Below are positions 25,876-55,532 of a stretch of 64,000 bases of DNA, piece after piece (position 1 is the stretch's first letter; every line of letters starts with the position of its first letter). Origin of the DNA: Escherichia coli (lineage in GTDB: Bacteria; Pseudomonadota; Gammaproteobacteria; Enterobacterales; Enterobacteriaceae); assembly GCF_017348835.2 (NCBI RefSeq), contig NZ_CP071375.1, one strand, 5' to 3'. Position numbers and translations under genes: made by a program. The notes under the pieces are model-generated. The model was not told the origin of the DNA. It made no database searches and saw only the letters and a list, made by a program, of their open reading frames with translations.

Positions 25876-25895
25876 ACACATTAAATAATAAATAT

Positions 25896-25919
25896 CCTCC
25901 GGCATAGCCGGAGGTTTTT
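25896..25919 (+). terminator. pgm intrinsic terminator
   Basis: Hairpin ctccggc-ata-gccggag followed by a T5 run, 20 bp after the pgm stop. Confidence 0.65.
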
Positions 25920-26600
25920 CAAATGCGCCTATAAGGCTCTCTTACCAGCCGCGCCCTAACAGGCGCACACGATCTGACATTTGCATCCAACTTCGTTACT
26001 TACGGCCCGTAAACGGGCTGCCCGGATAGGGAATCGATAACTGCTCTACCATTTTATCCTCTTCAAGCTGGTGCTTTATGTAATCCTGTATCTTCGCCGT
26101 GTTCTTACCCACTGTATCGACGTAGTACCCTCTGCACCAGAACTCCCTGTTCCTGTATTTGAATTTCAAATCACCAAACTGCTCGTAAAGCATCAGACTG
26201 CTTTTCCCTTCCAGATATCCCATAAAGCCGGATACGCTCATTTTGGGCGGGATCTCCACAAGCATATGGATATGATCTGCACAGCATTCAGCTTCCAGAA
26301 TCCGTACACTTTTCCACTCACACAGCTTTCTCAAAATACTGCCTATTGCTCTACGCTTCTCTCTGTAGAACACCTGTCTTCGATATTTTGGCGCAAAAAC
26401 TATGTGATATTTACAGTTCCATCGGGTGTGCGCTAAGCTCTTTTCGTTCCCCATTGGGACCCCCTTTTGATTTCTTGTTTGACACTTGCAGTTGCCAGAC
26501 CGCAAGGTGTTTTAACAAATCAAAAGGGGTTTTAATAACTGGCTCAAAGCTGAAAGCTTTCCGGAACCCCCAGCCTAGCTGGGGGTTTTCTGTGCACAAG
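25920..26600 (-). mobile_element. IS200 insertion sequence (IS200/IS605 family); ends approximate
   Basis: Contains a 152-aa HuH tyrosine transposase and the characteristic IS200 5' leader hairpins; boundaries estimated to about +/-30 bp from the flanking pgm and potE terminators. Confidence 0.8.
25996..26454 (-). CDS. tnpA: IS200 transposase TnpA (HuH Y1 transposase)
   Basis: 152 aa from ATG 26454 (MGNEKSLAHTRWNCKYHIVFAPKYRR...) with HuH motif HIHML and catalytic Tyr in RGYYVDTVG; near-identical to the Salmonella IS200 TnpA from memory. Confidence 0.9.
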   Translation of the reverse strand: MGNEKSLAHTRWNCKYHIVFAPKYRRQVFYREKRRAIGSILRKLCEWKSVRILEAECCADHIHMLVEIPPKMSVSGFMGYLEGKSSLMLYEQFGDLKFKYRNREFWCRGYYVDTVGKNTAKIQDYIKHQLEEDKMVEQLSIPYPGSPFTGRK

Positions 26601-26631
26601 AAAAAGGGCGGTCGCAAGATCGCCCTTTTTT
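26600..26631 (-). terminator. potE-speF operon intrinsic terminator
   Basis: Hairpin gggcggtcgc-aa-gatcgccc with a U-run on the minus-strand transcript, 12 bp 3' of the potE stop. Confidence 0.7.
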
Positions 26632-39280: not shown

Positions 39281-39311
39281 AACCGCTAGTGGAAACGCTG
39301 GCGGTTTTTTT
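39281..39311 (+). terminator. probable ybfA intrinsic terminator
   Basis: Hairpin aaccgc...gcggtt followed by a T7 run. Confidence 0.55.
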
Positions 39312-39357
39312 CTTTTCGCCGTCTACACTTACTCCTGTAAACCGTTCAGGAGCAGTA

Positions 39358-46291: not shown

Positions 46292-47083
46292 ATGCCTGAA
46301 GGCCCGGAGATCCGCCGTGCAGCGGATAACCTGGAGGCGGCGATCAAAGGCAAACCACTAACTGAAGTCTGGTTTGCCTTCCCGCAGTTAAAATCTTATC
46401 AATCACCACTTATCGGTCAACACGTTACCCATGTGGAAACGCGTGGTAAGGCGTTGTTAACTCATTTTTCCAACGACTTAACGCTCTACAGCCATAATCA
46501 GCTTTACGGCGTCTGGCGCGTGGTTGATACCGGCGAAGAGCCGCAGACCACGCGAGTATTGCGGGTAAAACTGCAAACGGTTGACAAAACCATTCTGCTT
46601 TATAGCGCCTCGGATATTGAGATGTTGAGGCCGGAACAACTGACCACGCATCCGTTTTTACAACGCGTTGGTCCCGATGTGCTGGATCCGAATCTGACGC
46701 CGGAGGTGGTAAAGGAACGGCTATTGTCGCCGCGCTTTCGTAACCGTCAGTTTGCTGGATTACTGCTCGATCAGGCGTTTCTGGCAGGACTTGGCAATTA
46801 TTTGCGGGTGGAGATCCTCTGGCAGGTTGGGTTGACTGGAAATCATAAAGCGAAAGAACTCAATGCGGCGCAACTGGATGCACTCGCACACGCGTTACTG
46901 GATATTCCTCGATTTTCCTACGCTACGCGGGGGCAGGTGGATGAGAATAAGCATCATGGGGCGCTGTTTCGCTTTAAGGTTTTTCATCGTGATGGCGAAC
47001 TGTGCGAACGCTGTGGCGGCATCATTGAGAAAACCACGCTGTCATCTCGCCCGTTTTACTGGTGTCCGGGCTGCCAGCACTAG
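46292..47083 (+). CDS. nei: endonuclease VIII (DNA glycosylase / AP lyase)
   Basis: 263-aa ORF with N-terminal [14 protein letters not shown] (catalytic Pro2) and a C-terminal zinc finger CxxC...CxxC. Confidence 0.95.
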
Positions 47084-48126
47084 GCCGTACGTTTCGGCGC
47101 ATAGGTTGAAATAAACCGCGCAATGGCAGGCCCTGTCAGCAAAATACTGAACAGGCGCAGGGTTTGCATCGCCATAATGAGCGCCATATCGGCATTGCTC
47201 CCTGCGGCGATGACCGCCACGGTATCAAGCCCGCCGGGGCTGGTGGCGAGGTAGGCAGTCATAAAATCAATGTGCATAAACCGGGTCAGTCCCCACGCCA
47301 TACCCGCACAAATAGCCAGCAGAGCAAAAATCGACAGCAGGATTTGTGGTAGCGGGCGTAGTGCCCGCAGTAAGATTTGTTTATCGAAACCAAGACCAAT
47401 CCGCCAGCCAATTGCCATATACGCCATCGCCAGCAGCCATTCCGGTAGTTCGATGGTGATGAGCTGACCAGACTGGAGCACTGCGCCCGCCAGCATCGGG
47501 ATGAGCATCGTGCCGGAAGGAAGACGCAGCAGGCATCCCACTGTACCGGCAACGACCGCGAGCAAAATAGTAAGCAGGAGATTAATGCTCACTGGCGGGA
47601 ACCAGACGATATGCTGGTTAACCGCTTCAGCGTTATCACCCAGCATCATGCGAGTGACCAGAACAGCGGCCCCCGCGACGAACAGCACTCGCAGATATTG
47701 CATAAACGCCACCAGGCGAATATCTGCGCCGTAATCTTGCGCCATAGCGACCATTGCCGCCGCGCCGCCAGGAGAGGAACCCCAGGCACCGGTATTTCCA
47801 GGCAATGAGCTATAGCGCACCAATAACCAACCCACGATGGCGCTGGAAAGCAGCGTTACCAGTAAAATTGCAAGCACGATCGGCCAGTTGACGGCCAGGG
47901 TGGTGAGAATCGAACCAGTGAGGTTTTGCGCAATCATGCAGCCAAGAATGGCCTGCGCGGCGAGAAAAGCGGAGCGGGGGAGTTGCAGGATAACCCCGCG
48001 CATACTGAAGATGATCCCGGCGATCATCGGCCCAAGTAATAATGCCGCCGGGAGATGTACCGCGAGGAAACCAATAGAAAGGAGAAGTGATAGCACACAT
48101 AACATTCCCCACTGCAAAACTGGCAT
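47080..48126 (-). CDS. abrB: AbrB-family putative membrane transporter / regulator
   Basis: Polytopic membrane protein recognised as AbrB/YbgN; two candidate ATGs (48141 and 48126), the second chosen to match the recalled 348-aa length. Confidence 0.85.
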
Positions 48127-48274
48127 CCTTTGCTCCCTCATTATTTACTCTTTGGTGTATCGATACAGCATAAAGAATGCCGGGCATGGAAAAAATAACG
48201 GTAATCAATAAAAGCCGGAAAATTGGCAATTAACCGAAGAAGCCCTCTCCGGCTGGAAAGGGCAATAGGCTAAA

Positions 48275-49336
48275 TCAGTTGTAGTTAATTTTGAAAAGTA
48301 CCACTGTATCAAAGGGACCAACGTCGATGGGCGTACCCGGCGTGGATGACAATTCTGCCGTGTAGGTTTTTTCATACACTAACAGGTCGCTGGTAAAATC
48401 GGCATACTCACTGTATTTGTTGAAAGTATAGGGTGAGGCATTTTCATCCAACAATCGAAGCTTCAGGCCATTGCCAATGAGCAGTGATTTATCTTCGTCG
48501 ATAAGGGTTTCATCGGTATAAAACGAAGAGCTGACTTTAAAACCGTCGGTACACTGGTCGTTTTGTGATTTGGTTGTAGTTATTTTAAATTGCTGCGACA
48601 TCGTATGGCGACGAATATCCAGCACGTTAAATCGGCCAAAATCAACGACCTGGGTTTCAGGTGAGATAGCAAAGTTGACGCTGCAATCCAGCACGCGGAT
48701 ATTTTCCAGACCGGTAATGTGATATTTCAGATTCTTCGCGGTAGGGTCTTCGTTCACGCTGCCTGCGCCATCAAACTGTACGACGATGTAATCGCTGAGT
48801 TTGCTCTGATAATCATGGGGCGGCATGGCGCGAACTTTAACGTAAAGCCGCATACGCGCCACAAACGTCCGCGATTTGTGCATAACGGTTGGATCGCCGG
48901 AGCAAAGTTTATTTTGCCAGCCCATCGCAATGATCTGCTCCGGGGTGTAAATATCAATATTCTTACTGTCGATGCACTGATTCGTGTCGATGCGGCTTTT
49001 CCCAAGGCTTGCGTCATAGTCCACGCCTTCATAGGTTACGCCCAATTGATAATAGGGATCCTGAATACCGGGGTAAGGGTTTACCCAGGCGTAGACGTGC
49101 TCGCTTTCAAAATTACCGTTTGTGTTGTTGTCACAGTAGACCGGAATTTTTATATCGTCAGATTCCCAGATTTTATCGCCGGGTTTGGAATTGGCCGGAA
49201 CGGCGAAGGGCATAATAGCTTCCGATTTTTCTACAGCGCCGTTTGCGGTACCAAAATAGCAGTTCAGCGCCAGCGCCGCTTTTAGCGGCAAAAAAATCAG
49301 ACAGATGGCGAGCAACACGCCTTTGGCGAATCTCAT
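48275..49336 (-). CDS. ybgO: putative fimbrial adhesin (tip protein) of the ybg chaperone-usher operon
   Basis: 353-aa secreted protein with a signal peptide; last gene of the ybgD-Q-P-O operon. Confidence 0.8.
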
Positions 49337-50064
49337 TTTTTATTCTCCACCGGCTGCAGGCGGCATTGCCGCTGGCAGGAGAGCGTGTTCATACGCAATG
49401 CGCCGTAGTCGTCCATGTAGCCAAGATAAAACTGCTTGCCGCTATAGCTGCCCGTGCTGGTGGTGACCGAACTGAACGGTGCGACCATCGTGCTTTTAAA
49501 GCCAGGCAGCACGCCTTTCTCATCCCGCCCAAGATAGGCAATAGTCAGATAGTATCCGGTCGGGTTTTTCAGGGTAAGCTGGTTATTCTGCTGGCTAACC
49601 TGTAGCTGTTGCTCAACATGATCGCCCATTTTTTTGCGTAATGCGGCGGGTCGCCAGAATAGCTTAATGCGACTTTGGACGGCGACTTGCAGGATCGCAT
49701 GGCCCTCGCTGCCTTCCGGGACAGGCGGAATTTCACGCAGGTTATAGTAAAAGAGAGATTCGCGATCGGTGGGTAATTTCGCGGTGGCGGCTTGTTTCAT
49801 GATCCGAACCTGCGAAGCCGCTTTTGGCTCCAGTCGCTGGATAGGCGGCAGGGCGACGAGAAATTCATCGCTTTTCTCTCCCTTTTCATTTTCTATCCAT
49901 GAATAGGCGAGGTAGGGGAGTTTATCGCTGCGGTTTTCCACGCGCAGGCTGGTTGCTTTATCTTTGCTATTAAAGATGATGCGCGTGCGGTCAGGCTGCA
50001 CTGCGCCGTGGCTGCACATACTGGCAACCAGAAGAATCAAAGGGAATCCTTTAACAAATGTCAT
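49333..50064 (-). CDS. ybgP: periplasmic fimbrial chaperone (PapD-like)
   Basis: 243-aa ORF with signal peptide and PapD-like fold motifs; 4-nt overlap with ybgO. Confidence 0.85.
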
Positions 50065-50078
50065 CGTCTTTTCCTTAA

Positions 50079-52538
50079 TTAATGACAGGGTAAAATCAGG
50101 CGCTTAGTCACATCTTCCAGATGTTCCGGCAGATGAATGGCACACGTTTTCTGGTCGCCCCAGTGCACGGTAAATTGTTGATTTTCATCGACCCCACTCA
50201 GCCATGCGTGACCGTTTTCGCCAACCATCCCGACGCTGACACCGCCTTCAGCCTGGCGAACATCGGCACCGAGCGGCGGGAAATGCCCGTTAGCATCGCT
50301 GATAATGACGTTGAGATCTTTCCCGGCGCGGGACGCCAGCGATTTAAAGCCGATGGCGCCTTCGGTCCAGGTTTCTTTCACCACGTTTTCGGAAACGGTA
50401 ACGCCGTCAGGCAAGTCGTTCATATTGACCGCCACCGTCGTAGGCTGGTAGCTGGAAACAAACGGTACCACGGCAATACCAAAGCGGTTGGTGTAGTCAA
50501 TATTGCCCTGAATCGGAATATCGCCCACGCCGTCGGTGCTGACCATCAGGCGTGGTTCATTGGTGGAACTGCGGCGATGGAATGCCGCGCCATGTTGAGT
50601 CGCGGTAAACGAGCCGCTCCAACTGGCACTGGCGGAAGTGTAATCATTGGCGGCATAGGTTCCGGTCAGATCCCATTCCCCCGCCGAACTGAGGTGTTGG
50701 TAATTGCCGCTGACCTGCGCACCGTTATCCGGGCGATCGGATTGTATTCCAGCCGACATTCCCCAACTGTTTCGTTCATCCAGGGTATCGTTCCACGACA
50801 TGCGGTGGGTGGTACTATTACTGTTGTTCTGCATGTCATAACCCAGTCGACCACTTTCCCCAATCGGTAAGGAGATCGAAAAGTAAATCTGGTTGTCGCG
50901 ATCTTTATCTTCATAATGGGTGGTGTTGAACGAGGTCGAGACAGAAATATCTTTCCAGTCGCCAATGTCGACGTTAAAACCGGCGGTAATGTTGGCCGTG
51001 GTGGAGGTATCCGCATTCCACCAGCTCTGATGCAGGATGTTGGCGTAGAGATTAAGATTCAGCGGAGTAATAGGCTGACCGAAGGAGAGGCTGATGGTTT
51101 GCTTTTCATCCTGCGCGTCGGCGTCATTGTATTTGTGATCAATGTAGTTAGCGTAGCTGTGAAAATGGCGATCGGAGAAGCGATAGGCTGCCAATGAGAT
51201 GGTGCTGTTGGTCGCATCAACCTGTTTGCTGTAGTTAAAGCGGTAGCTGTAACCCTGCTCATCCTGTTGAGTATCAAAATGGCTGTCGGCCCAGGTCACG
51301 TCAAACGACAGCGCCCCCAGCCAGAGCATATTTTGCCCAATACCCAGCGCGCCGGAACGATAGTCATCGCCTGCGAGAAGCATGCCGCCATATAGTGAAG
51401 TGTTGGAGAGCATCCCCCAGGAGACTTCATGGCTAATGAAGGTTTCATCCTCGGTGTGGTGCGACATAGAGGAACGCGGGCGACCGGCAGCCAGTTTATA
51501 GCGCACCTGGCCCTGACGCGTCAGGAACGGGGTAGAGGCCGCTGAAACCTGGAAGTTATTCACCCGTCCATCTTCTTCGCTCACTTTGACATCCAGTGTA
51601 CCTTGCACTGACTGATTCAGGTCATCAATAATAAATGGGCCTGGCGGAACTTTTTTCTGGTAAATCACGCGACCAGAATGGCTTATCGTGACCGTGGCGT
51701 TAGTCTGTGCGATGCCGCTGATTTGCGGCGCGTAGCCGCGTAACTCCCAGGGGAGCATTCGATCGTCGCTGGCTAACGCCGCACCGGTATAGGAGAAACC
51801 ATCAAAAATGTTAGAGCTAAAATCGGTTTCGCCCAGGGTTAATCGGGAACCTATTTGCGGTAACGGGCGGAACAGGTAGGTCCGTGAAATCGCCCCGGAT
51901 TGTTCACGGTTGTCGCCGCTATCGGACTGGCTAAGCTGATAATCGCTGCGCAGACGCCATGCCCCGGCGTTGAGGCCCGTGGTGCCATAGGCGTTCAGGT
52001 TGTTGCTGCTGCTGCCGCTTTGTGGGCGATAAGTGCTGGCAAACAGGTTGTAATCCATCAGGAAGCCAGGAATACCGTTATTCCACGTTGAGGGTGGCGT
52101 CCAGTTTTCTGAATGCCACGCCAGCCATGCCTGCGGGATTGTAATATTGAGCTGTTGATTTGCCTGATCGAAAGTAAAGATGATTTCAGGGAAGACACTA
52201 AAATCGACACATTCTTTTATTGCCGGTAATTTTTTACGAAAGTCAGATTTAAGTCCGAAGAGTTCGATCAGCGATTCATTGATACAAGGAATAATTTTAT
52301 CGCCAGATTTTTGCCAGCGAATTTGTTGCCCATTACTGATTTTATTATTATTAACCGTAACACTAACAAAATAATCGCCGGGAGCTACGACGCCTTTTTG
52401 ATTGAGCAACGAAATATCAACGCTATCCCGAATCGACTTATCGAGAACGTTAAGGTTAAATTCAGCTGCCAGCGCAGGAGGGGTTACCATTGCCAGACAG
52501 GAAAGAACAGAGAGTCGATAAATATTCACGGCATCCAT
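50079..52538 (-). CDS. ybgQ: outer-membrane fimbrial usher
   Basis: 819-aa ORF recognised as the usher YbgQ; the exact start among nearby ATGs is not resolved. Confidence 0.85.
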   Translation of the reverse strand: MDAVNIYRLSVLSCLAMVTPPALAAEFNLNVLDKSIRDSVDISLLNQKGVVAPGDYFVSVTVNNNKISNGQQIRWQKSGDKIIPCINESLIELFGLKSDFRKKLPAIKECVDFSVFPEIIFTFDQANQQLNITIPQAWLAWHSENWTPPSTWNNGIPGFLMDYNLFASTYRPQSGSSSNNLNAYGTTGLNAGAWRLRSDYQLSQSDSGDNREQSGAISRTYLFRPLPQIGSRLTLGETDFSSNIFDGFSYTGAALASDDRMLPWELRGYAPQISGIAQTNATVTISHSGRVIYQKKVPPGPFIIDDLNQSVQGTLDVKVSEEDGRVNNFQVSAASTPFLTRQGQVRYKLAAGRPRSSMSHHTEDETFISHEVSWGMLSNTSLYGGMLLAGDDYRSGALGIGQNMLWLGALSFDVTWADSHFDTQQDEQGYSYRFNYSKQVDATNSTISLAAYRFSDRHFHSYANYIDHKYNDADAQDEKQTISLSFGQPITPLNLNLYANILHQSWWNADTSTTANITAGFNVDIGDWKDISVSTSFNTTHYEDKDRDNQIYFSISLPIGESGRLGYDMQNNSNSTTHRMSWNDTLDERNSWGMSAGIQSDRPDNGAQVSGNYQHLSSAGEWDLTGTYAANDYTSASASWSGSFTATQHGAAFHRRSSTNEPRLMVSTDGVGDIPIQGNIDYTNRFGIAVVPFVSSYQPTTVAVNMNDLPDGVTVSENVVKETWTEGAIGFKSLASRAGKDLNVIISDANGHFPPLGADVRQAEGGVSVGMVGENGHAWLSGVDENQQFTVHWGDQKTCAIHLPEHLEDVTKRLILPCH

Positions 52539-52587
52539 ACCTGAACAATATTCGCAAAAGGCGGCTAATCAGCCGCCTTAAAAAGGA

Positions 52588-53154
52588 TTATTGGTAATCC
52601 AGAACGTAAGTTGCGTTAGCAGTAACGGCCCCCGCGGTAACCGAAACTGCGTTATCCATCTGTTCCATCCAGGCAAAGAAGTTTAACGTTTGTTCTGTTG
52701 AACTTGCCAATAAGTCAATTGTTGGCGCTTCTGTTCCCAATACAACAAATGATTCATCTTTGTTCATGAGACGTACGCCAACGCCGGTAGCCTCGCCAGC
52801 ACTGATGTTACTAAGGAGCGGCGTTGCACCTGTCGTTTTAGCTGTGCTGTCGAAGGTCACGCCTACCTTTGAGACCACGCCACCGTTGCCATCATCCCAG
52901 CCTGCAATATCACAGTTGATTAAGCGAATATTGACAGGTTTTTTCTCGCTATGATGTTCTCGATTTATGTGGGATGTGGTTACTTCACCCAAGTCAATGT
53001 TCATATCAAGGTCATTAGGGTGAATTTCACAAGGTGCTTCAATAACTTCACCTTTAAAGTGGATTTCACCAGATCCTTCATCTGCAGCAAAAACAGGTGA
53101 AGCGAATAGTAGAGATATGGCCAGGGCGGCCAGTGTTTTTTGTCCTTTAAACAT
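52588..53154 (-). CDS. ybgD: fimbrial major subunit-like protein
   Basis: 188 aa from ATG 53154 (MFKGQKTLAALAISLLFASPVFA signal peptide); an alternative ATG at 53169 adds 5 residues. Confidence 0.85.
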   Translation of the reverse strand: MFKGQKTLAALAISLLFASPVFAADEGSGEIHFKGEVIEAPCEIHPNDLDMNIDLGEVTTSHINREHHSEKKPVNIRLINCDIAGWDDGNGGVVSKVGVTFDSTAKTTGATPLLSNISAGEATGVGVRLMNKDESFVVLGTEAPTIDLLASSTEQTLNFFAWMEQMDNAVSVTAGAVTANATYVLDYQ

Positions 53155-53480
53155 ACATGAATCCTTCATGGGCTATGATAAAGTATACTAATTATTCCGA
53201 CAGAATAGTGGTTTTTTGTTCATGTAATAATATTAATGTTGCTACATTATGTTTGAGAGTTTCTCAAAGCTCTCGAATCATAAATAAAGTGAATTAATCC
53301 TATTACGAGTTTATTTAATTGTGGGTGCTACCCAATGTATTCTACATCGATTGGCGGGATAACGGTGGTGGTGAATGAAAAATTAGGATTTTATTTAGTT
53401 GTCGGATATGTATTCTTGTAACGTGTAATTATGTATTTGTGTCCGATTACGTTTTTTTGTCGATAGACATAACTAACGAA

Positions 53481-53513
53481 CAAAAAAAAGCCCGCCAGAT
53501 ATTCAGGCGGGCT
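53481..53513 (-). terminator. gltA intrinsic terminator
   Basis: Hairpin agcccgcc...ggcgggct followed by U8 on the minus-strand transcript, about 30 bp 3' of the gltA stop. Confidence 0.75.
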
Positions 53514-53540
53514 AAACGATATATGGTTCAAATCAGATAA

Positions 53541-54824
53541 TTAATGTTTAACATCTGATTTAAAGTCTCGTTTTTCATAGCCGGTGTACAACTGGCGCGG
53601 ACGGGCGATCTTCATGCCGTCACTGTGCATTTCGCTCCAGTGAGCGATCCAGCCAACGGTACGGGCCATAGCGAAGATGACGGTGAACATGGAAGACGGA
53701 ATACCCATCGCTTTCAGGATGATACCAGAGTAGAAATCGACGTTCGGGTACAGTTTCTTCTCGATAAAGTACGGGTCGTTCAGCGCGATGTTTTCCAGCT
53801 CCATAGCCACTTCCAGCAGGTCATCTTTGGTGCCCAGCTCTTTCAGAACTTCATGGCAGGTTTCACGCATTACGGTGGCGCGCGGGTCGTAATTTTTGTA
53901 CACGCGGTGACCGAAGCCCATCAGGCGGAAAGAATCATTTTTATCTTTCGCACGACGAACAAATTCCGGAATGTGTTTAACGGAGCTGATTTCTTCCAGC
54001 ATTTTCAGCGCCGCTTCGTTAGCACCACCGTGCGCAGGTCCCCACAGTGAAGCAATACCTGCTGCGATACAGGCAAACGGGTTCGCACCCGAAGAGCCAG
54101 CGGTACGCACGGTGGAGGTAGAGGCGTTCTGTTCATGGTCAGCGTGCAGTATCAGAATACGGTCCATAGCACGTTCCAGAATCGGATTAACTTCATACGG
54201 TTCGCACGGCGTGGAGAACATCATATTCAGGAAGTTACCGGCATAGGAGAGATCGTTGCGCGGATAAACAAATGGCTGACCAATGGAATACTTGTAACAC
54301 ATCGCTGCCATGGTCGGCATTTTCGACAGCAGGCGGAACGCGGCAATTTCACGGTGACGAGGATTGTTAACATCCAGCGAGTCGTGATAGAACGCCGCCA
54401 GCGCGCCGGTAATACCACACATGACTGCCATTGGATGTGAGTCGCGACGGAAAGCGTGGAACAGACGGGTAATCTGCTCGTGGATCATGGTATGACGGGT
54501 CACCGTAGTTTTAAATTCGTCATACTGTTCCTGAGTCGGTTTTTCACCATTCAGCAGGATGTAACAAACTTCCAGGTAGTTAGAATCGGTCGCCAGCTGA
54601 TCGATCGGGAAACCGCGGTGCAGCAAAATACCTTCATCACCATCAATAAAAGTAATTTTAGATTCGCAGGATGCGGTTGAAGTGAAGCCTGGGTCAAAGG
54701 TGAACACACCTTTTGAACCGAGAGTACGAATATCAATAACATCTTGACCCAGCGTGCCTTTCAGCACATCCAGTTCAACAGCTGTGTCCCCGTTGAGGGT
54801 GAGTTTTGCTTTTGTATCAGCCAT
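53541..54824 (-). CDS. gltA: citrate synthase (type II)
   Basis: 427-aa [24 protein letters not shown]...; recognised as GltA. Confidence 0.97.
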
Positions 54825-55532
54825 TTAAGGTCTCCTTAGCGCCTTATTGCGTAAGACTGCCGGAACTTAAATTTGCCTTCGCACATCAACCTGGCTTTAC
54901 CCGTTTGTTATTTGGCTCGCCGCTCTGTGAAAGAGGGGAAAACCTGGGTACAGAGCTCTGGGCGCTTGCAGGTAAAGGATCCATTGATGACGAATAAATG
55001 GCGAATCAAGTACTTAGCAATCCGAATTATTAAACTTGTCTACCACTAATAACTGTCCCGAATGAATTGGTCAATACTTCCACACTGTTACATAAGTTAA
55101 TCTTAGGTGAAATACCGACTTCATAACTTTTACGCATTATATGCTTTTCCTGGTAATGTTTGTAACAACTTTGTTGAATGATTGTCAAATCAGATGATTA
55201 AAAATTAAATAAATGTTGTTATCGTGACCTGGATCACTGTTCAGGATAAAACCCGACAAACTATATGTAGGTTAATTGTAATGATTTTGTGAACGGCCTA
55301 TACTGCCGCCAGGTCTCCGGAACACCCTGCAATCCCGAGCCACCCAGCGTTGTAACGTGTCGTTTTCGCATCTGGAAGCAGTGTTTTGCATGACGCGCAG
55401 TTATAGAAAGGACGCTGTCTGACCCGCAAGCAGACCGGAGGAAGGAAATCCCGACGTCTCCAGGTAACAGAAAGTTAACCTCTGTGCCCGTAGTCCCCAG
55501 GGAATAATAAGAACAGCATGTGGGCGTTATTC

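Follow-up and report, generated by a model that had tools for sequence, protein, structure and literature searches.

An intact, deeply divergent allele of the ybg chaperone-usher operon in Escherichia coli, probably exchanged by homologous recombination

The stretch of E. coli DNA analyzed here (the window, 64 kb) carries four uninterrupted open reading frames, ybgD, ybgQ, ybgP, and ybgO, on the minus strand between gltA and abrB, and the synteny at the locus is sdh-gltA-ybgDQPO-abrB-nei. These reading frames and the RefSeq annotation of the 100%-identical strain PE164 agreed with the ybg layout of K-12.

52588..53154, minus strand: ybgD, major pilin subunit, 188 aa (Pfam Fimbrial, 2e-28; PDB sequence matches to FimA and PapA)
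50079..52538, minus strand: ybgQ, outer-membrane usher, 819 aa (Pfam Usher, 4.5e-182; PapC_N and PapC_C)
49333..50064, minus strand: ybgP, periplasmic PapD-like chaperone, 243 aa (Pfam PapD_N, 6e-36; PapD_C, 1e-13)
48275..49336, minus strand: ybgO, two-domain tip adhesin, 353 aa (PDB chain matches, AlphaFold/Foldseek, weak Pfam Fimbrial match)
48686-49267, minus strand: YbgO receptor-binding domain, residues 24-217 (match to 9rww and 9rx0)
48278-48685, minus strand: YbgO pilin domain, residues 218-353 (weak Pfam Fimbrial match)

The original prediction, made from the sequence, was of a ybg chaperone-usher operon with four intact genes and overlapping or tight junctions. Synteny and domain content supported the assignment, all protein lengths were within one residue of those of K-12 (window/K-12: YbgD 188/188, YbgQ 819/818, YbgP 243/242, YbgO 353/353 aa), and the coordinates place ybgQ 49 nt after ybgD and ybgP 14 nt after ybgQ, with ybgP and ybgO overlapping by 4 nt (ATGA). 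The ybg operon is an already known system of E. coli. It belongs to a "core-associated" chaperone-usher type of which many strains have no intact copy (PMC3559732), and Ybg raised adherence to bladder cells in the work of Korea (2010), as cited in PMC6033998.

The ybgD start was placed at the ATG at 53154, which is preceded by GAAGGA and is also the RefSeq start in PE164. A longer start at 53169 (193 aa), offered by the ORF tool, had no Shine-Dalgarno sequence and was rejected. For ybgQ, an 816-aa alternative from an in-frame GTG is possible, and this version is present in databases. The predicted signal peptides were matched by putative cleavage sites, called by eye, in YbgD (SPVFA↓ADEG), YbgQ (PPALA↓AEFN), YbgP (CSHG↓AVQP), and YbgO (KAALA↓LNCY), the last of which falls where the crystallised YbgO domain begins (PDB 9rww, residue 1). 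YbgD has a FimA-like N-terminal donor strand (GEIHFKGEVI) and ends in YVLDYQ. Pfam yielded a single sub-threshold Fimbrial match for YbgO, over residues 218-353 (20.8 bits, where the cut-off is 25.6), while the solved chains 9rww and 9rx0 matched residues 24-217 with an E value of about 1e-120. The AlphaFold model of YbgO had a pLDDT of 87.6, and its best Foldseek matches in the PDB were the two-domain adhesins FimH, LpfD, CupB6, PapG, CsuE, and CfaE.

Four features flank or divide the genes, three of them hairpins.

53155..53477, minus strand: AT-rich 5' region of ybgD, presumed promoter/regulatory region (31.9% G+C; window rank)
53482..53513, minus strand: gltA intrinsic terminator, hairpin AGCCCGCC...GGCGGGCU followed by a U-run (arms 53489-53499 and 53503-53513)
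52558..52579, minus strand: GC-rich hairpin AAGGCGGCU-GAUU-AGCCGCCUU followed by UUG, directly 3' of the ybgD stop (RNA fold)
48242..48263, minus strand: putative operon terminator, hairpin GCCCUUUCC-AGCC-GGAGAGGGC with a weak U-tract, 12 nt past the ybgO stop (RNA fold)

The 386 bp upstream of ybgD (53155-53540) were strongly AT-rich, as had been noted from the sequence, with 33.2% G+C, against 52.0% in the window overall; among all 386-bp segments of the 64 kb, only 0.28% had a G+C content as low or lower, which places the region in the lowest 0.3%. About 60 bp at its gltA side are gltA stop-proximal sequence and the gltA intrinsic terminator, so the true 5' region of ybgD is about 53155-53477. 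The terminator (z = -3.7 for the RNA fold of 53470-53545) keeps gltA transcription apart from ybgD, and its CCCGCC/GGCGGG hairpin was the sole clearly conserved block in common with the K-12 intergenic region. The upstream region resembled that of K-12 at two points only, the gltA terminator and the ribosome-binding site. Its identity to K-12 was 50% by global alignment and about 45% in a sliding profile, and its alignment score against K-12 had a z of about 5, compared to about 19 for K-12 against KTa005. The ybg upstream regions of every other allele were AT-rich too (26-33% G+C).

In the ybgD 5' region, a scan of the coding strand gave no consensus-like sigma-70 site at its threshold, GATC and switch-like long inverted repeats were not found, and Rfam gave no match above a gathering score; the high-affinity H-NS 10-mer had no match within the ybgD upstream region. 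H-NS represses the cryptic fimbriae of K-12 (Korea et al. 2010, cited in PMC3559732). Given the AT-richness and this report, H-NS silencing of the ybg operon in the window is plausible, and we infer its "cryptic" status on these grounds. Transcription would probably start beyond the gltA terminator, within the ~320 bp of AT-rich sequence, and expression in laboratory culture would probably be low through H-NS-type silencing, as reported for the K-12 cryptic fimbriae.

The hairpin after ybgD had a z of -3.5 (RNA fold of 52525-52600). A GGCGGC/GCCGCC-type hairpin was predicted at the same site in K-12, KTa005, O103, E1V33, and Superficieibacter, in divergent surroundings; in E. whittamii the GGCGGC motif was located further downstream, beyond the end of the extracted stretch. 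By analogy with other fimbrial operons, the hairpin is probably a partial terminator or an mRNA-stabilising element that sets the ratio of the major subunit to the assembly proteins. The putative operon terminator was weak, with a z of only -1.9 for the RNA fold of 48180-48285.

The operon in the window was not the ordinary ybg operon that had been expected but a deep allelic variant, with 74-79% nucleotide identity to K-12 over the operon and 97.5-98.1% in the flanking genes. Sliding identity to K-12 was 92-100% (mostly 97-100%) outside a sharply delimited tract and 62-89% inside it. Synonymous divergence (dS) from K-12 was 0.01-0.10 for pxpC, pxpA, nei, abrB, gltA, sdhC, and sdhD and 1.58-2.07 for the ybg genes, where values above about 1.5 are saturated and give the order of magnitude only. 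As a calibration, the flanking genes of the window and Superficieibacter differed by a dS of 0.66-2.35. At synonymous sites, the distance between this ybg allele class and the K-12 class is as large as that to another genus in the neighbouring genes. The dN/dS ratios of all four genes against K-12 were 0.038-0.087, which argues that the Ybg proteins have been maintained functional, and low ratios across saturated synonymous divergence strengthen the original view that the operon is not decayed.

The tract was defined by comparison with Escherichia sp. E1V33, a species-representative genome that is unclassified Escherichia in the NCBI taxonomy.

48131..53829, no strand: recombinant tract, E1V33-type rather than K-12-type (sliding identity and informative sites)

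It reaches from ybgO into gltA, of which it takes in the final ~120-290 bp, with a mixed left edge (47956 to 48131) and a right edge within 53664-53892. Among sites that discriminate K-12 from E1V33, about 1,340 inside the tract matched E1V33 and about 20 matched K-12, and most of those outside matched K-12. The window and E1V33 were 98-100% identical over 48081-53880, the regulatory region included, and their YbgQ proteins were identical or almost so, while identity in the flanks was 86.5-99.5% per 200 bp (mostly 90-97%). Reversing the K-12 pattern, dS between the window and E1V33 was 0.02-0.04 in ybg and 0.13-0.43, a between-species divergence, in the surrounding chromosome. Mobility genes were found neither in nor adjoining the tract. 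Since the tract is nearly identical to E1V33 while the flanks diverge, the sequences point to allelic replacement at ybg by homologous recombination, and a near-identical allele in chromosomes at between-species divergence implies exchange between species. E1V33-type YbgO was found outside E. coli in two contigs only, and cryptic-clade Escherichia mostly carry another usher class (P0005, 83% identity), so the transfer may have run from E. coli to E1V33 and not the other way.

Divergence was unevenly spread over the operon. YbgO had been named as the protein likeliest to vary between strains, but it was the most conserved against K-12 (87.8% amino acid identity, 90.7% in the receptor-binding domain; dS 2.07, dN/dS 0.038). 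YbgQ was 83.8% identical (dS 1.58, dN/dS 0.059), and the least conserved proteins were YbgD (79.8%; dS 1.62, dN/dS 0.087) and YbgP (78.2%; dS about 1.8, dN/dS 0.08). Within K-12-type operons, ybgD and its upstream region formed an additional deep polymorphism: K-12 and KTa005 have identical YbgO and YbgP and 78% identity in YbgD. The best conserved part was thus the YbgO receptor-binding domain, and divergence was greatest in the shaft subunit, chaperone, and regulatory region. This pattern suggests that the receptor is conserved and that the antigenic or phage-exposed surface and regulation are subject to selection or drift.

Among 5,426 complete E. coli genomes, 411 carried the allele, O157:H7, O55:H7, and O145:H28 among them, and exactly 411 had the window-type ybgD 5' sequence; these counts are biased by the heavy sequencing of O157:H7. 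The allele may be called phylogroup-E/O157-type, a phylogroup label that we assume from those serotypes. At 90% identity, the window-type usher cluster had 1,482 members and the K-12 type 18,862; ushers of rare E. coli, of cryptic Escherichia, of E. fergusonii, and of E. albertii fell into further classes, separate from these two. The usher tree was star-like. E. whittamii and Superficieibacter electus carry the same four ybg genes downstream of gltA.

The ybg locus of O157:H7 (EDL933/Sakai) is one of 16 fimbrial loci (Low et al. 2006, cited in PMC7098969) and belongs to the same allele class as the window; nucleotide identity over the operon was 99.5-99.6% for beef and pork isolates with 5.5-5.6-Mb genomes. 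In EDL933, YbgO was identical to that of the window and YbgP, YbgD, and YbgQ differed by 2, 3, and 6 residues, respectively. However, a nonsense mutation in EDL933 turns usher codon 724 from TGG into TAG (W724*; window position 50368). The codon is intact in the window, so the window copy is a potentially functional version of the allele, which the reference O157:H7 strain carries in broken form. The exact intact 61-mer at this site was found in the window and in 317 of the 411 carriers.

We consider it likely that the intact ybg operon is a rare, deeply divergent allele, a ~5.7-kb block exchanged by homologous recombination and held under strong purifying selection, whose mechanism would be that of its family. 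An ordinary K-12-like cryptic operon with a strain-variable tip adhesin would fit the K-12-like gene order, gene lengths, chromosomal position, and AT-rich upstream region, but is very improbable in view of the contrast between operon and flanking identity and of the conservation of YbgO, which is greater than that of YbgD and YbgP (78-80%) and complete between K-12 and KTa005. An unused operon decaying in place, under acceleration or relaxed constraint and with no recombination, is hardly credible. Ybg is indeed "not intact in many strains" (PMC3559732), with inactivations in EDL933, O103 RM8385 (ybgD frameshift), and E. whittamii (truncated usher ORF) and a ybgO remnant alone in some lineages; yet the dN/dS values indicate purifying selection rather than neutrality, the edges of divergence are sharp to within 200 bp, and in-place acceleration cannot account for the contrast between tract and flanks in E1V33.

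The gltA-abrB interval is variable, with another island in some genomes, and the upstream region is mostly unalignable to K-12, as might be expected of a mobile-element island bearing a different fimbrial type unrelated in origin to K-12 ybg. Such an origin is nevertheless very unlikely: the four genes are orthologous to and colinear with those of K-12, their proteins align without gaps at 78-88% amino acid identity, the Escherichia usher classes group together in the tree, the breakpoints are inside homologous abrB and gltA sequence, the locus has the same position in another genus, and no integrase, transposase, tRNA, or direct-repeat boundary was found. Somewhat less improbable, though still doubtful, is that the operon is not silent and that its replaced regulatory region confers an expression programme of its own, for example host- or temperature-induced, making "cryptic" inapplicable. 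The region has only its end elements in common with the K-12 type, strong purifying selection implies regular use, ybg (allele unspecified) was expressed higher in HUS-associated non-O157 STEC (PMC6033998), and BolA overexpression induces ybgD in K-12 (PMC4337573). Against this, all other alleles match the region in AT-richness, so the same silencing logic could apply, and Low et al. (2006; cited in PMC7098969) found F9 and Yeh to be expressed from promoter fusions in O157:H7, with ybg unmentioned as expressed.

Under the preferred reading of an exchanged allele, the block comprises the 3' end of gltA with its terminator, the regulatory region rich in AT, ybgD, ybgQ, ybgP, and ybgO, and was exchanged as a whole by homologous recombination in the conserved flanks, the abrB 5' end and the gltA 3' end. 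From family membership, all four proteins would be exported by the Sec pathway, YbgP would cap subunits through donor-strand complementation, and YbgQ would form the assembly pore in the outer membrane. The two-domain adhesin YbgO would enter first and take the tip position, with YbgD polymerising behind it through donor-strand exchange. The conserved hairpin after ybgD would probably leave more ybgD transcript than usher, chaperone, and adhesin transcripts.

Among known systems, the window operon is, by sequence, a different allele class of the K-12 fimbrial type ("cryptic"; Korea et al. 2010; Wurpel et al. 2013, PMC3559732). The two are alike in locus, gene order, lengths, domains, the hairpin after ybgD, and the length (386 bp in the window, 389 bp in K-12) and AT-richness of the upstream region; they differ in nucleotide (74-79%) and amino acid (78-88%) sequence, with saturated synonymous sites, and in a regulatory region that is unalignable save for its two end elements. 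Type 1 fimbriae (fimAICDFGH, with the two-domain adhesin FimH) are of the same assembly class, with the FimA-like donor strand of YbgD and, for the YbgO model, FimH and other two-domain tip adhesins as best structural matches. However, the four-gene ybg operon is without FimF/FimG adaptors, FimI, the invertible fimS switch, and recombinase genes, and the receptor-binding domain of YbgO has no significant sequence similarity to FimH, with about 10% identity in the model-based structural alignment. fimA encodes a polymorphic major subunit, a likeness to ybgD, which encodes the most polymorphic protein here.

The other island seen in the gltA-abrB interval of some genomes carries a GntR regulator, RraA, dehydrogenases, and a TRAP transporter.

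The ybg locus of the window encodes a major pilin (YbgD), an usher (YbgQ), a chaperone (YbgP) and a tip adhesin (YbgO), and is laid out as follows.

Layout of the ybg operon and its flanking genes
47080–48126: abrB, flanking the operon on the ybgO side
48275–49336, minus strand: ybgO, uninterrupted ORF of 353 aa
49333–50064, minus strand: ybgP, uninterrupted ORF of 243 aa
50079–52538, minus strand: ybgQ, uninterrupted ORF of 819 aa
52588–53154, minus strand: ybgD, uninterrupted ORF of 188 aa
53541–54824: gltA, flanking the operon on the ybgD side

The original prediction of four intact genes with tight junctions and signal peptides was borne out. The ybgD/ybgQ and ybgQ/ybgP junctions were 49 nt and 14 nt, respectively, and ybgP and ybgO overlapped by 4 nt. 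The ATG of ybgD at 53154 is preceded by GAAGGA and is also the RefSeq start, which makes the 193-aa alternative start given by an ORF tool unlikely; the start of ybgQ was ambiguous (819 aa, or 816 aa via an in-frame GTG). YbgQ contained the barrel, N-terminal and C-terminal usher domains (Pfam Usher, 4.5e-182; PapC_N, 5.7e-35; PapC_C, 6.7e-14), and YbgP was a PapD-like two-domain periplasmic chaperone (PapD_N, 6.2e-36; PapD_C, 1.1e-13). YbgD matched the Pfam Fimbrial family (2e-28) and, by sequence, FimA and PapA in the PDB, and its signal peptide and FimA-like N-terminal donor strand (GEIHFKGEVI) could be read by eye. Signal peptides were evident on inspection in the operon proteins, and the predicted YbgO cleavage site, between ALA and LNCY, fell exactly where the crystallised domain begins (residue 1).

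YbgO showed the receptor-binding and pilin domains of a two-domain tip adhesin. Its residues 24–217 (window 48686–49267) resembled at the sequence level the solved chains 9rww and 9rx0 (E ~1e-120; K-12-like allele), and residues 218–353 gave a sub-threshold Fimbrial match, the only Pfam match of the protein. The AlphaFold model (pLDDT 87.6) had FimH, LpfD, CupB6, PapG, CsuE and CfaE as its best predicted structural matches in the PDB. Neither 9rww nor 9rx0 was among the Foldseek PDB library results (entries released up to April 2026), and the likeness to the solved YbgO domain is one of sequence. The PDB sequences also included the related adhesin domains 9rwu/9rwv and 9rwe, which the Foldseek library did not return either, and a literature search found no paper accompanying these entries or 9rww and 9rx0.

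PMC3559732 describes Ybg as a "core-associated" E. coli fimbrial type of the chaperone-usher kind and notes that it is "not intact in many strains", and PMC7098969 lists ybg among the fimbrial loci of O157:H7 Sakai. Both defining features of the type (Wurpel et al. 2013) were present, namely the position between gltA and abrB/nei and the grouping of the usher with K-12 YbgQ. In a neighbour-joining tree of Ybg ushers and their relatives, with Fim, Yad and other E. coli fimbrial types left out, the window usher was placed among the Ybg sequences of Escherichia and away from relatives in Kluyvera, Citrobacter, Enterobacter and Salmonella. Because every testable feature of the Ybg family was found, the window operon is a known system. 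Nothing here is new in kind, the fimbriae being of a type already catalogued in E. coli.

The window copy nonetheless belongs to a distinct, ancient ybg allele class that has been exchanged between Escherichia species, which the original prediction overlooked. Flanking sequences were 92–100% identical to K-12 per 100 bp, mostly 97–100%, and from ~48200 to ~53195 identity fell abruptly to 62–89%, with ~45% in the ybgD upstream region, before being regained in the last ~100 bp of gltA. Amino acid identities to K-12 were 87.8% for YbgO, 83.8% for YbgQ, 79.8% for YbgD and 78.2% for YbgP. Silent divergence (dS) from K-12 was 1.58–2.07 in the ybg genes, values so high as to be saturated, and 0.01–0.10 in seven flanking genes; dN/dS of the ybg genes was 0.038–0.087. 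Since the flanking genes of the window and Superficieibacter differ by dS values of 0.66–2.35, the silent-site distance between the two E. coli ybg classes, at its saturated values, is roughly what separates the neighbouring genes of different genera. Among 5,426 complete E. coli genomes, 411 carried the 5.6-kb region at ≥99% identity, and the other genomes with a full-length operon, K-12 included, mostly matched it at ~77–78%. Deep allelic divergence between O157:H7 and K-12 fimbrial loci has long been recognised as a general phenomenon. For ybg, the literature searched contained no statement of an exchanged ancient allele class or of shaft, chaperone or regulatory variability.

Among species-representative genomes, scanned with exact peptide words, the window usher had a counterpart immediately downstream of gltA in E1V33 (an unclassified Escherichia sp.; ~100% identity), E. 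whittamii (85%) and Superficieibacter electus (70%); in Superficieibacter, nei and pxp also lay downstream. The ybg loci of E. fergusonii, E. albertii and E. marmotae surfaced in protein searches only, the scan having missed them because it relied on exact words. Between the window and the one E1V33 genome, flanking identity per 200 bp was 86.5–99.5%, mostly 90–97% (dS 0.13–0.43), and at 48081–53880 it was 98–100% (dS 0.02–0.04). We refer to this E1V33-type segment (~48.1–53.85 kb) as the tract. At the sites that distinguish K-12 from E1V33, the window agreed with E1V33 at ~1,340 sites inside the tract, against ~20, and with K-12 at most sites outside it. The informative-site mosaic placed the edges as follows.

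Edges of the recombinant tract from the informative-site mosaic
47956–48131: left edge, mixed
between 53664 and 53892: right edge

Divergence changed stepwise at both edges, inside homologous sequence, and the tract and its flanks were discordant in dS in opposite directions for K-12 and E1V33. Local acceleration of the ybg genes is ruled out by the mirror-image tract and flank identities with K-12 and E1V33. Insertion of a mobile island does not fit the locus, which has no mobility genes or repeat boundaries and consists of colinear orthologues. The tract is thus the signature of allelic replacement through homologous recombination between species.

Clustering of ushers at 90% identity resolved the following classes; the window usher, at 84% amino acid identity to K-12 YbgQ, fell in a separate cluster.

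Usher classes, with identity to the window usher and number of members
Window-type class: 99%, 1,482 members
K-12-type class: 84%, 18,862 members
Rare E. coli class (P0002): 85%, 36 members
Cryptic-clade class (P0005): 83%, 67 members
E. fergusonii class: 82%, 241 members
E. albertii class: 68%, 255 members

The neighbour-joining tree of the ushers was star-like within Escherichia. The Ybg-like usher of E. albertii (P0012; 68% to the window) grouped with Superficieibacter (76%) and not with other Escherichia, which is another point on which the ybg and species trees disagree. The window type occurred almost entirely in E. coli: an E1V33-type YbgO was present on only 2 contigs of unclassified Escherichia, and other cryptic-clade strains carried the P0005 usher class. 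Carriers of the window type included O157:H7, O55:H7, O145:H28 and O157:H16 strains, together with assorted pig, poultry, mink, baboon and human isolates. In EDL933 (O157:H7), the window-type usher was interrupted by W724* (TGG to TAG, window 50368). The window usher is intact, so that functional work would be better based on this copy than on that of EDL933. The exact window 61-mer around codon 724 was found in 317 of the 411 carriers, and 94 of the 411 were mismatched. Two strains differed in the content of the interval: that of Seattle 1946 between gltA and abrB held only a 396-bp ybgO pseudogene remnant (locus L003, 7179–7574), and in AVS0972 (locus L004, 7207–14114) a GntR regulator, RraA, dehydrogenases, UxaA-family hydrolases and a TRAP transporter lay next to abrB.

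The adhesin YbgO had been expected to be the gene most variable between strains, and the opposite was seen: to K-12, YbgO was more conserved than YbgD and YbgP. Between the classes, the receptor-binding domain of YbgO (residues 24–217) was 90.7% identical and its pilin domain 87.5%, and mature YbgD was 79.4% identical, with a minimum of 67.5% at residues 61–100. Between K-12 and KTa005, too, YbgD varied more than YbgO. KTa005 had YbgO and YbgP identical to those of K-12 and an usher region 94.5–100% identical per 200 bp, with a YbgD of 78% amino acid identity and 63–84% nucleotide identity over ybgD and its upstream region (locus L011, 6001–6997). E. coli therefore has three or more deeply separated classes of ybgD with its regulatory region. 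It is the shaft subunit, the chaperone and the regulatory region that vary, and not the adhesin. A literature search on hypervariable fimbrial backbone genes returned nothing specific to ybg.

As predicted, the 386-bp region upstream of ybgD (53155–53540) was strongly AT-rich, with 33.2% G+C compared to 52% for the whole window; only 0.28% of 386-bp stretches were as low or lower. Its gltA-proximal ~60 bp contained the gltA intrinsic terminator (53482–53513), and small ORFs of 24–46 aa were present in the intergenic region. All homologous ybgD upstream regions were 386–407 bp long with 26–33% G+C. The gltA terminator hairpin and the ribosome-binding site were all that the window-type and K-12-type regions shared; in global alignments scored over shuffles, z was ~5 for the window versus K-12 and ~19 for K-12 versus KTa005. 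A second AT-rich patch (52100–52400, 35–39% G+C) lay in the 5′ part of ybgQ, ~0.8–1 kb downstream of the upstream region.

No match to the H-NS high-affinity 10-mer (TCGATAAATT-like) was found in 53155–53540 with up to 2 mismatches. This 10-mer is not obligatory in H-NS targets. Literature searches found no H-NS ChIP or expression reports on the window-type allele. The AT-richness, taken together with K-12 cryptic fimbriae being reported as H-NS-silenced (PMC3559732, citing Korea 2010), makes H-NS silencing of the window operon plausible. The promoter scan detected no sigma-70-like site 5′ of ybgD on the coding strand, and its overall counts were not above those of shuffled sequences. An Rfam scan of 47900–55500 at E ≤ 1 returned only snR41, Hrs1 and anti-hemB, all sub-threshold chance matches, and no regulator gene for the operon was found.

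A phase-variable fimbrial switch was considered and rejected, as the locus had neither switch-like inverted repeats with a recombinase nor paired GATC sites. For a fimS-type switch, the inverted repeats returned by the repeat search were all weak or short, and no gene for a recombinase was present; for a pap-type Dam/Lrp switch, the upstream regions of the window and K-12 both had 0 GATC sites. A GC-rich hairpin (52558–52579, z = −3.5) directly followed the ybgD stop codon. Counted over the allele classes readable at that position, it was also predicted in K-12, KTa005, O103, E1V33 and Superficieibacter, even though the sequence around it had diverged. This hairpin probably attenuates or stabilises transcripts in favour of the major subunit.

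By analogy with the family, the four Ybg proteins would leave the cytoplasm via Sec, YbgP would bring about donor-strand complementation of the subunits, and the YbgQ usher would be the assembly site of a fibre with the YbgO adhesin at its tip and a YbgD polymer behind it. We raise only tentatively the possibility that the ybg locus is a long-lived, trans-species balanced polymorphism, in which ancient classes are kept and passed on by recombination and the swapped and selected unit is the regulatory region with the major subunit. Such a polymorphism would encompass no fewer than three deep ybgD classes in E. coli and, across the genus, five or more usher classes. Exchange of the regulatory region and YbgD could then create antigenic, phage-receptor or expression differences, and the receptor-binding domain of YbgO might be held near constant for a conserved receptor. 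If so, ybg expression in phylogroup-E strains would follow a programme different from that of K-12, set by the window-type regulatory region. A conserved receptor-binding domain set against a variable shaft and promoter offers a clear hypothesis for studies of the recently solved YbgO domain.

Treating ybg as a single gene set masks classes with ~22% nucleotide difference and promoter regions that are for the most part unrelated. K-12 regulatory findings, such as H-NS silencing, are thus not transferable to O157-type strains without a test, and SNP- or GWAS-type mapping of STEC reads on K-12 may yield artefactual ybg "variants". An STEC GWAS mapped on K-12 reported strong host associations of "variants" at ybgP and ybgQ (PMC12547504), which may simply reflect the allele class of the lineage. 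When expressed, Ybg has been linked to bladder-cell adherence (PMC6033998, citing Korea 2010). Literature searches with the O157:H7 locus tags Z0869–Z0872 and ECs0742–0745 returned nothing relevant, only unrelated affibody papers.

Elsewhere in the window, two further differences from K-12 were observed. The K-12 RhsC element (~9.6 kb), which lies between ybfA and ybgA and comprises rhsC, ybfB, an RHS fragment, ybfC and ISAs1 remnants, was absent, leaving a clean junction at 39310–39320. Downstream of pgm, ~0.7 kb (25892–26603) stood in place of ~1.7 kb of K-12 sequence containing a lipoprotein gene, a DUF2625 pseudogene and a wHTH fragment.
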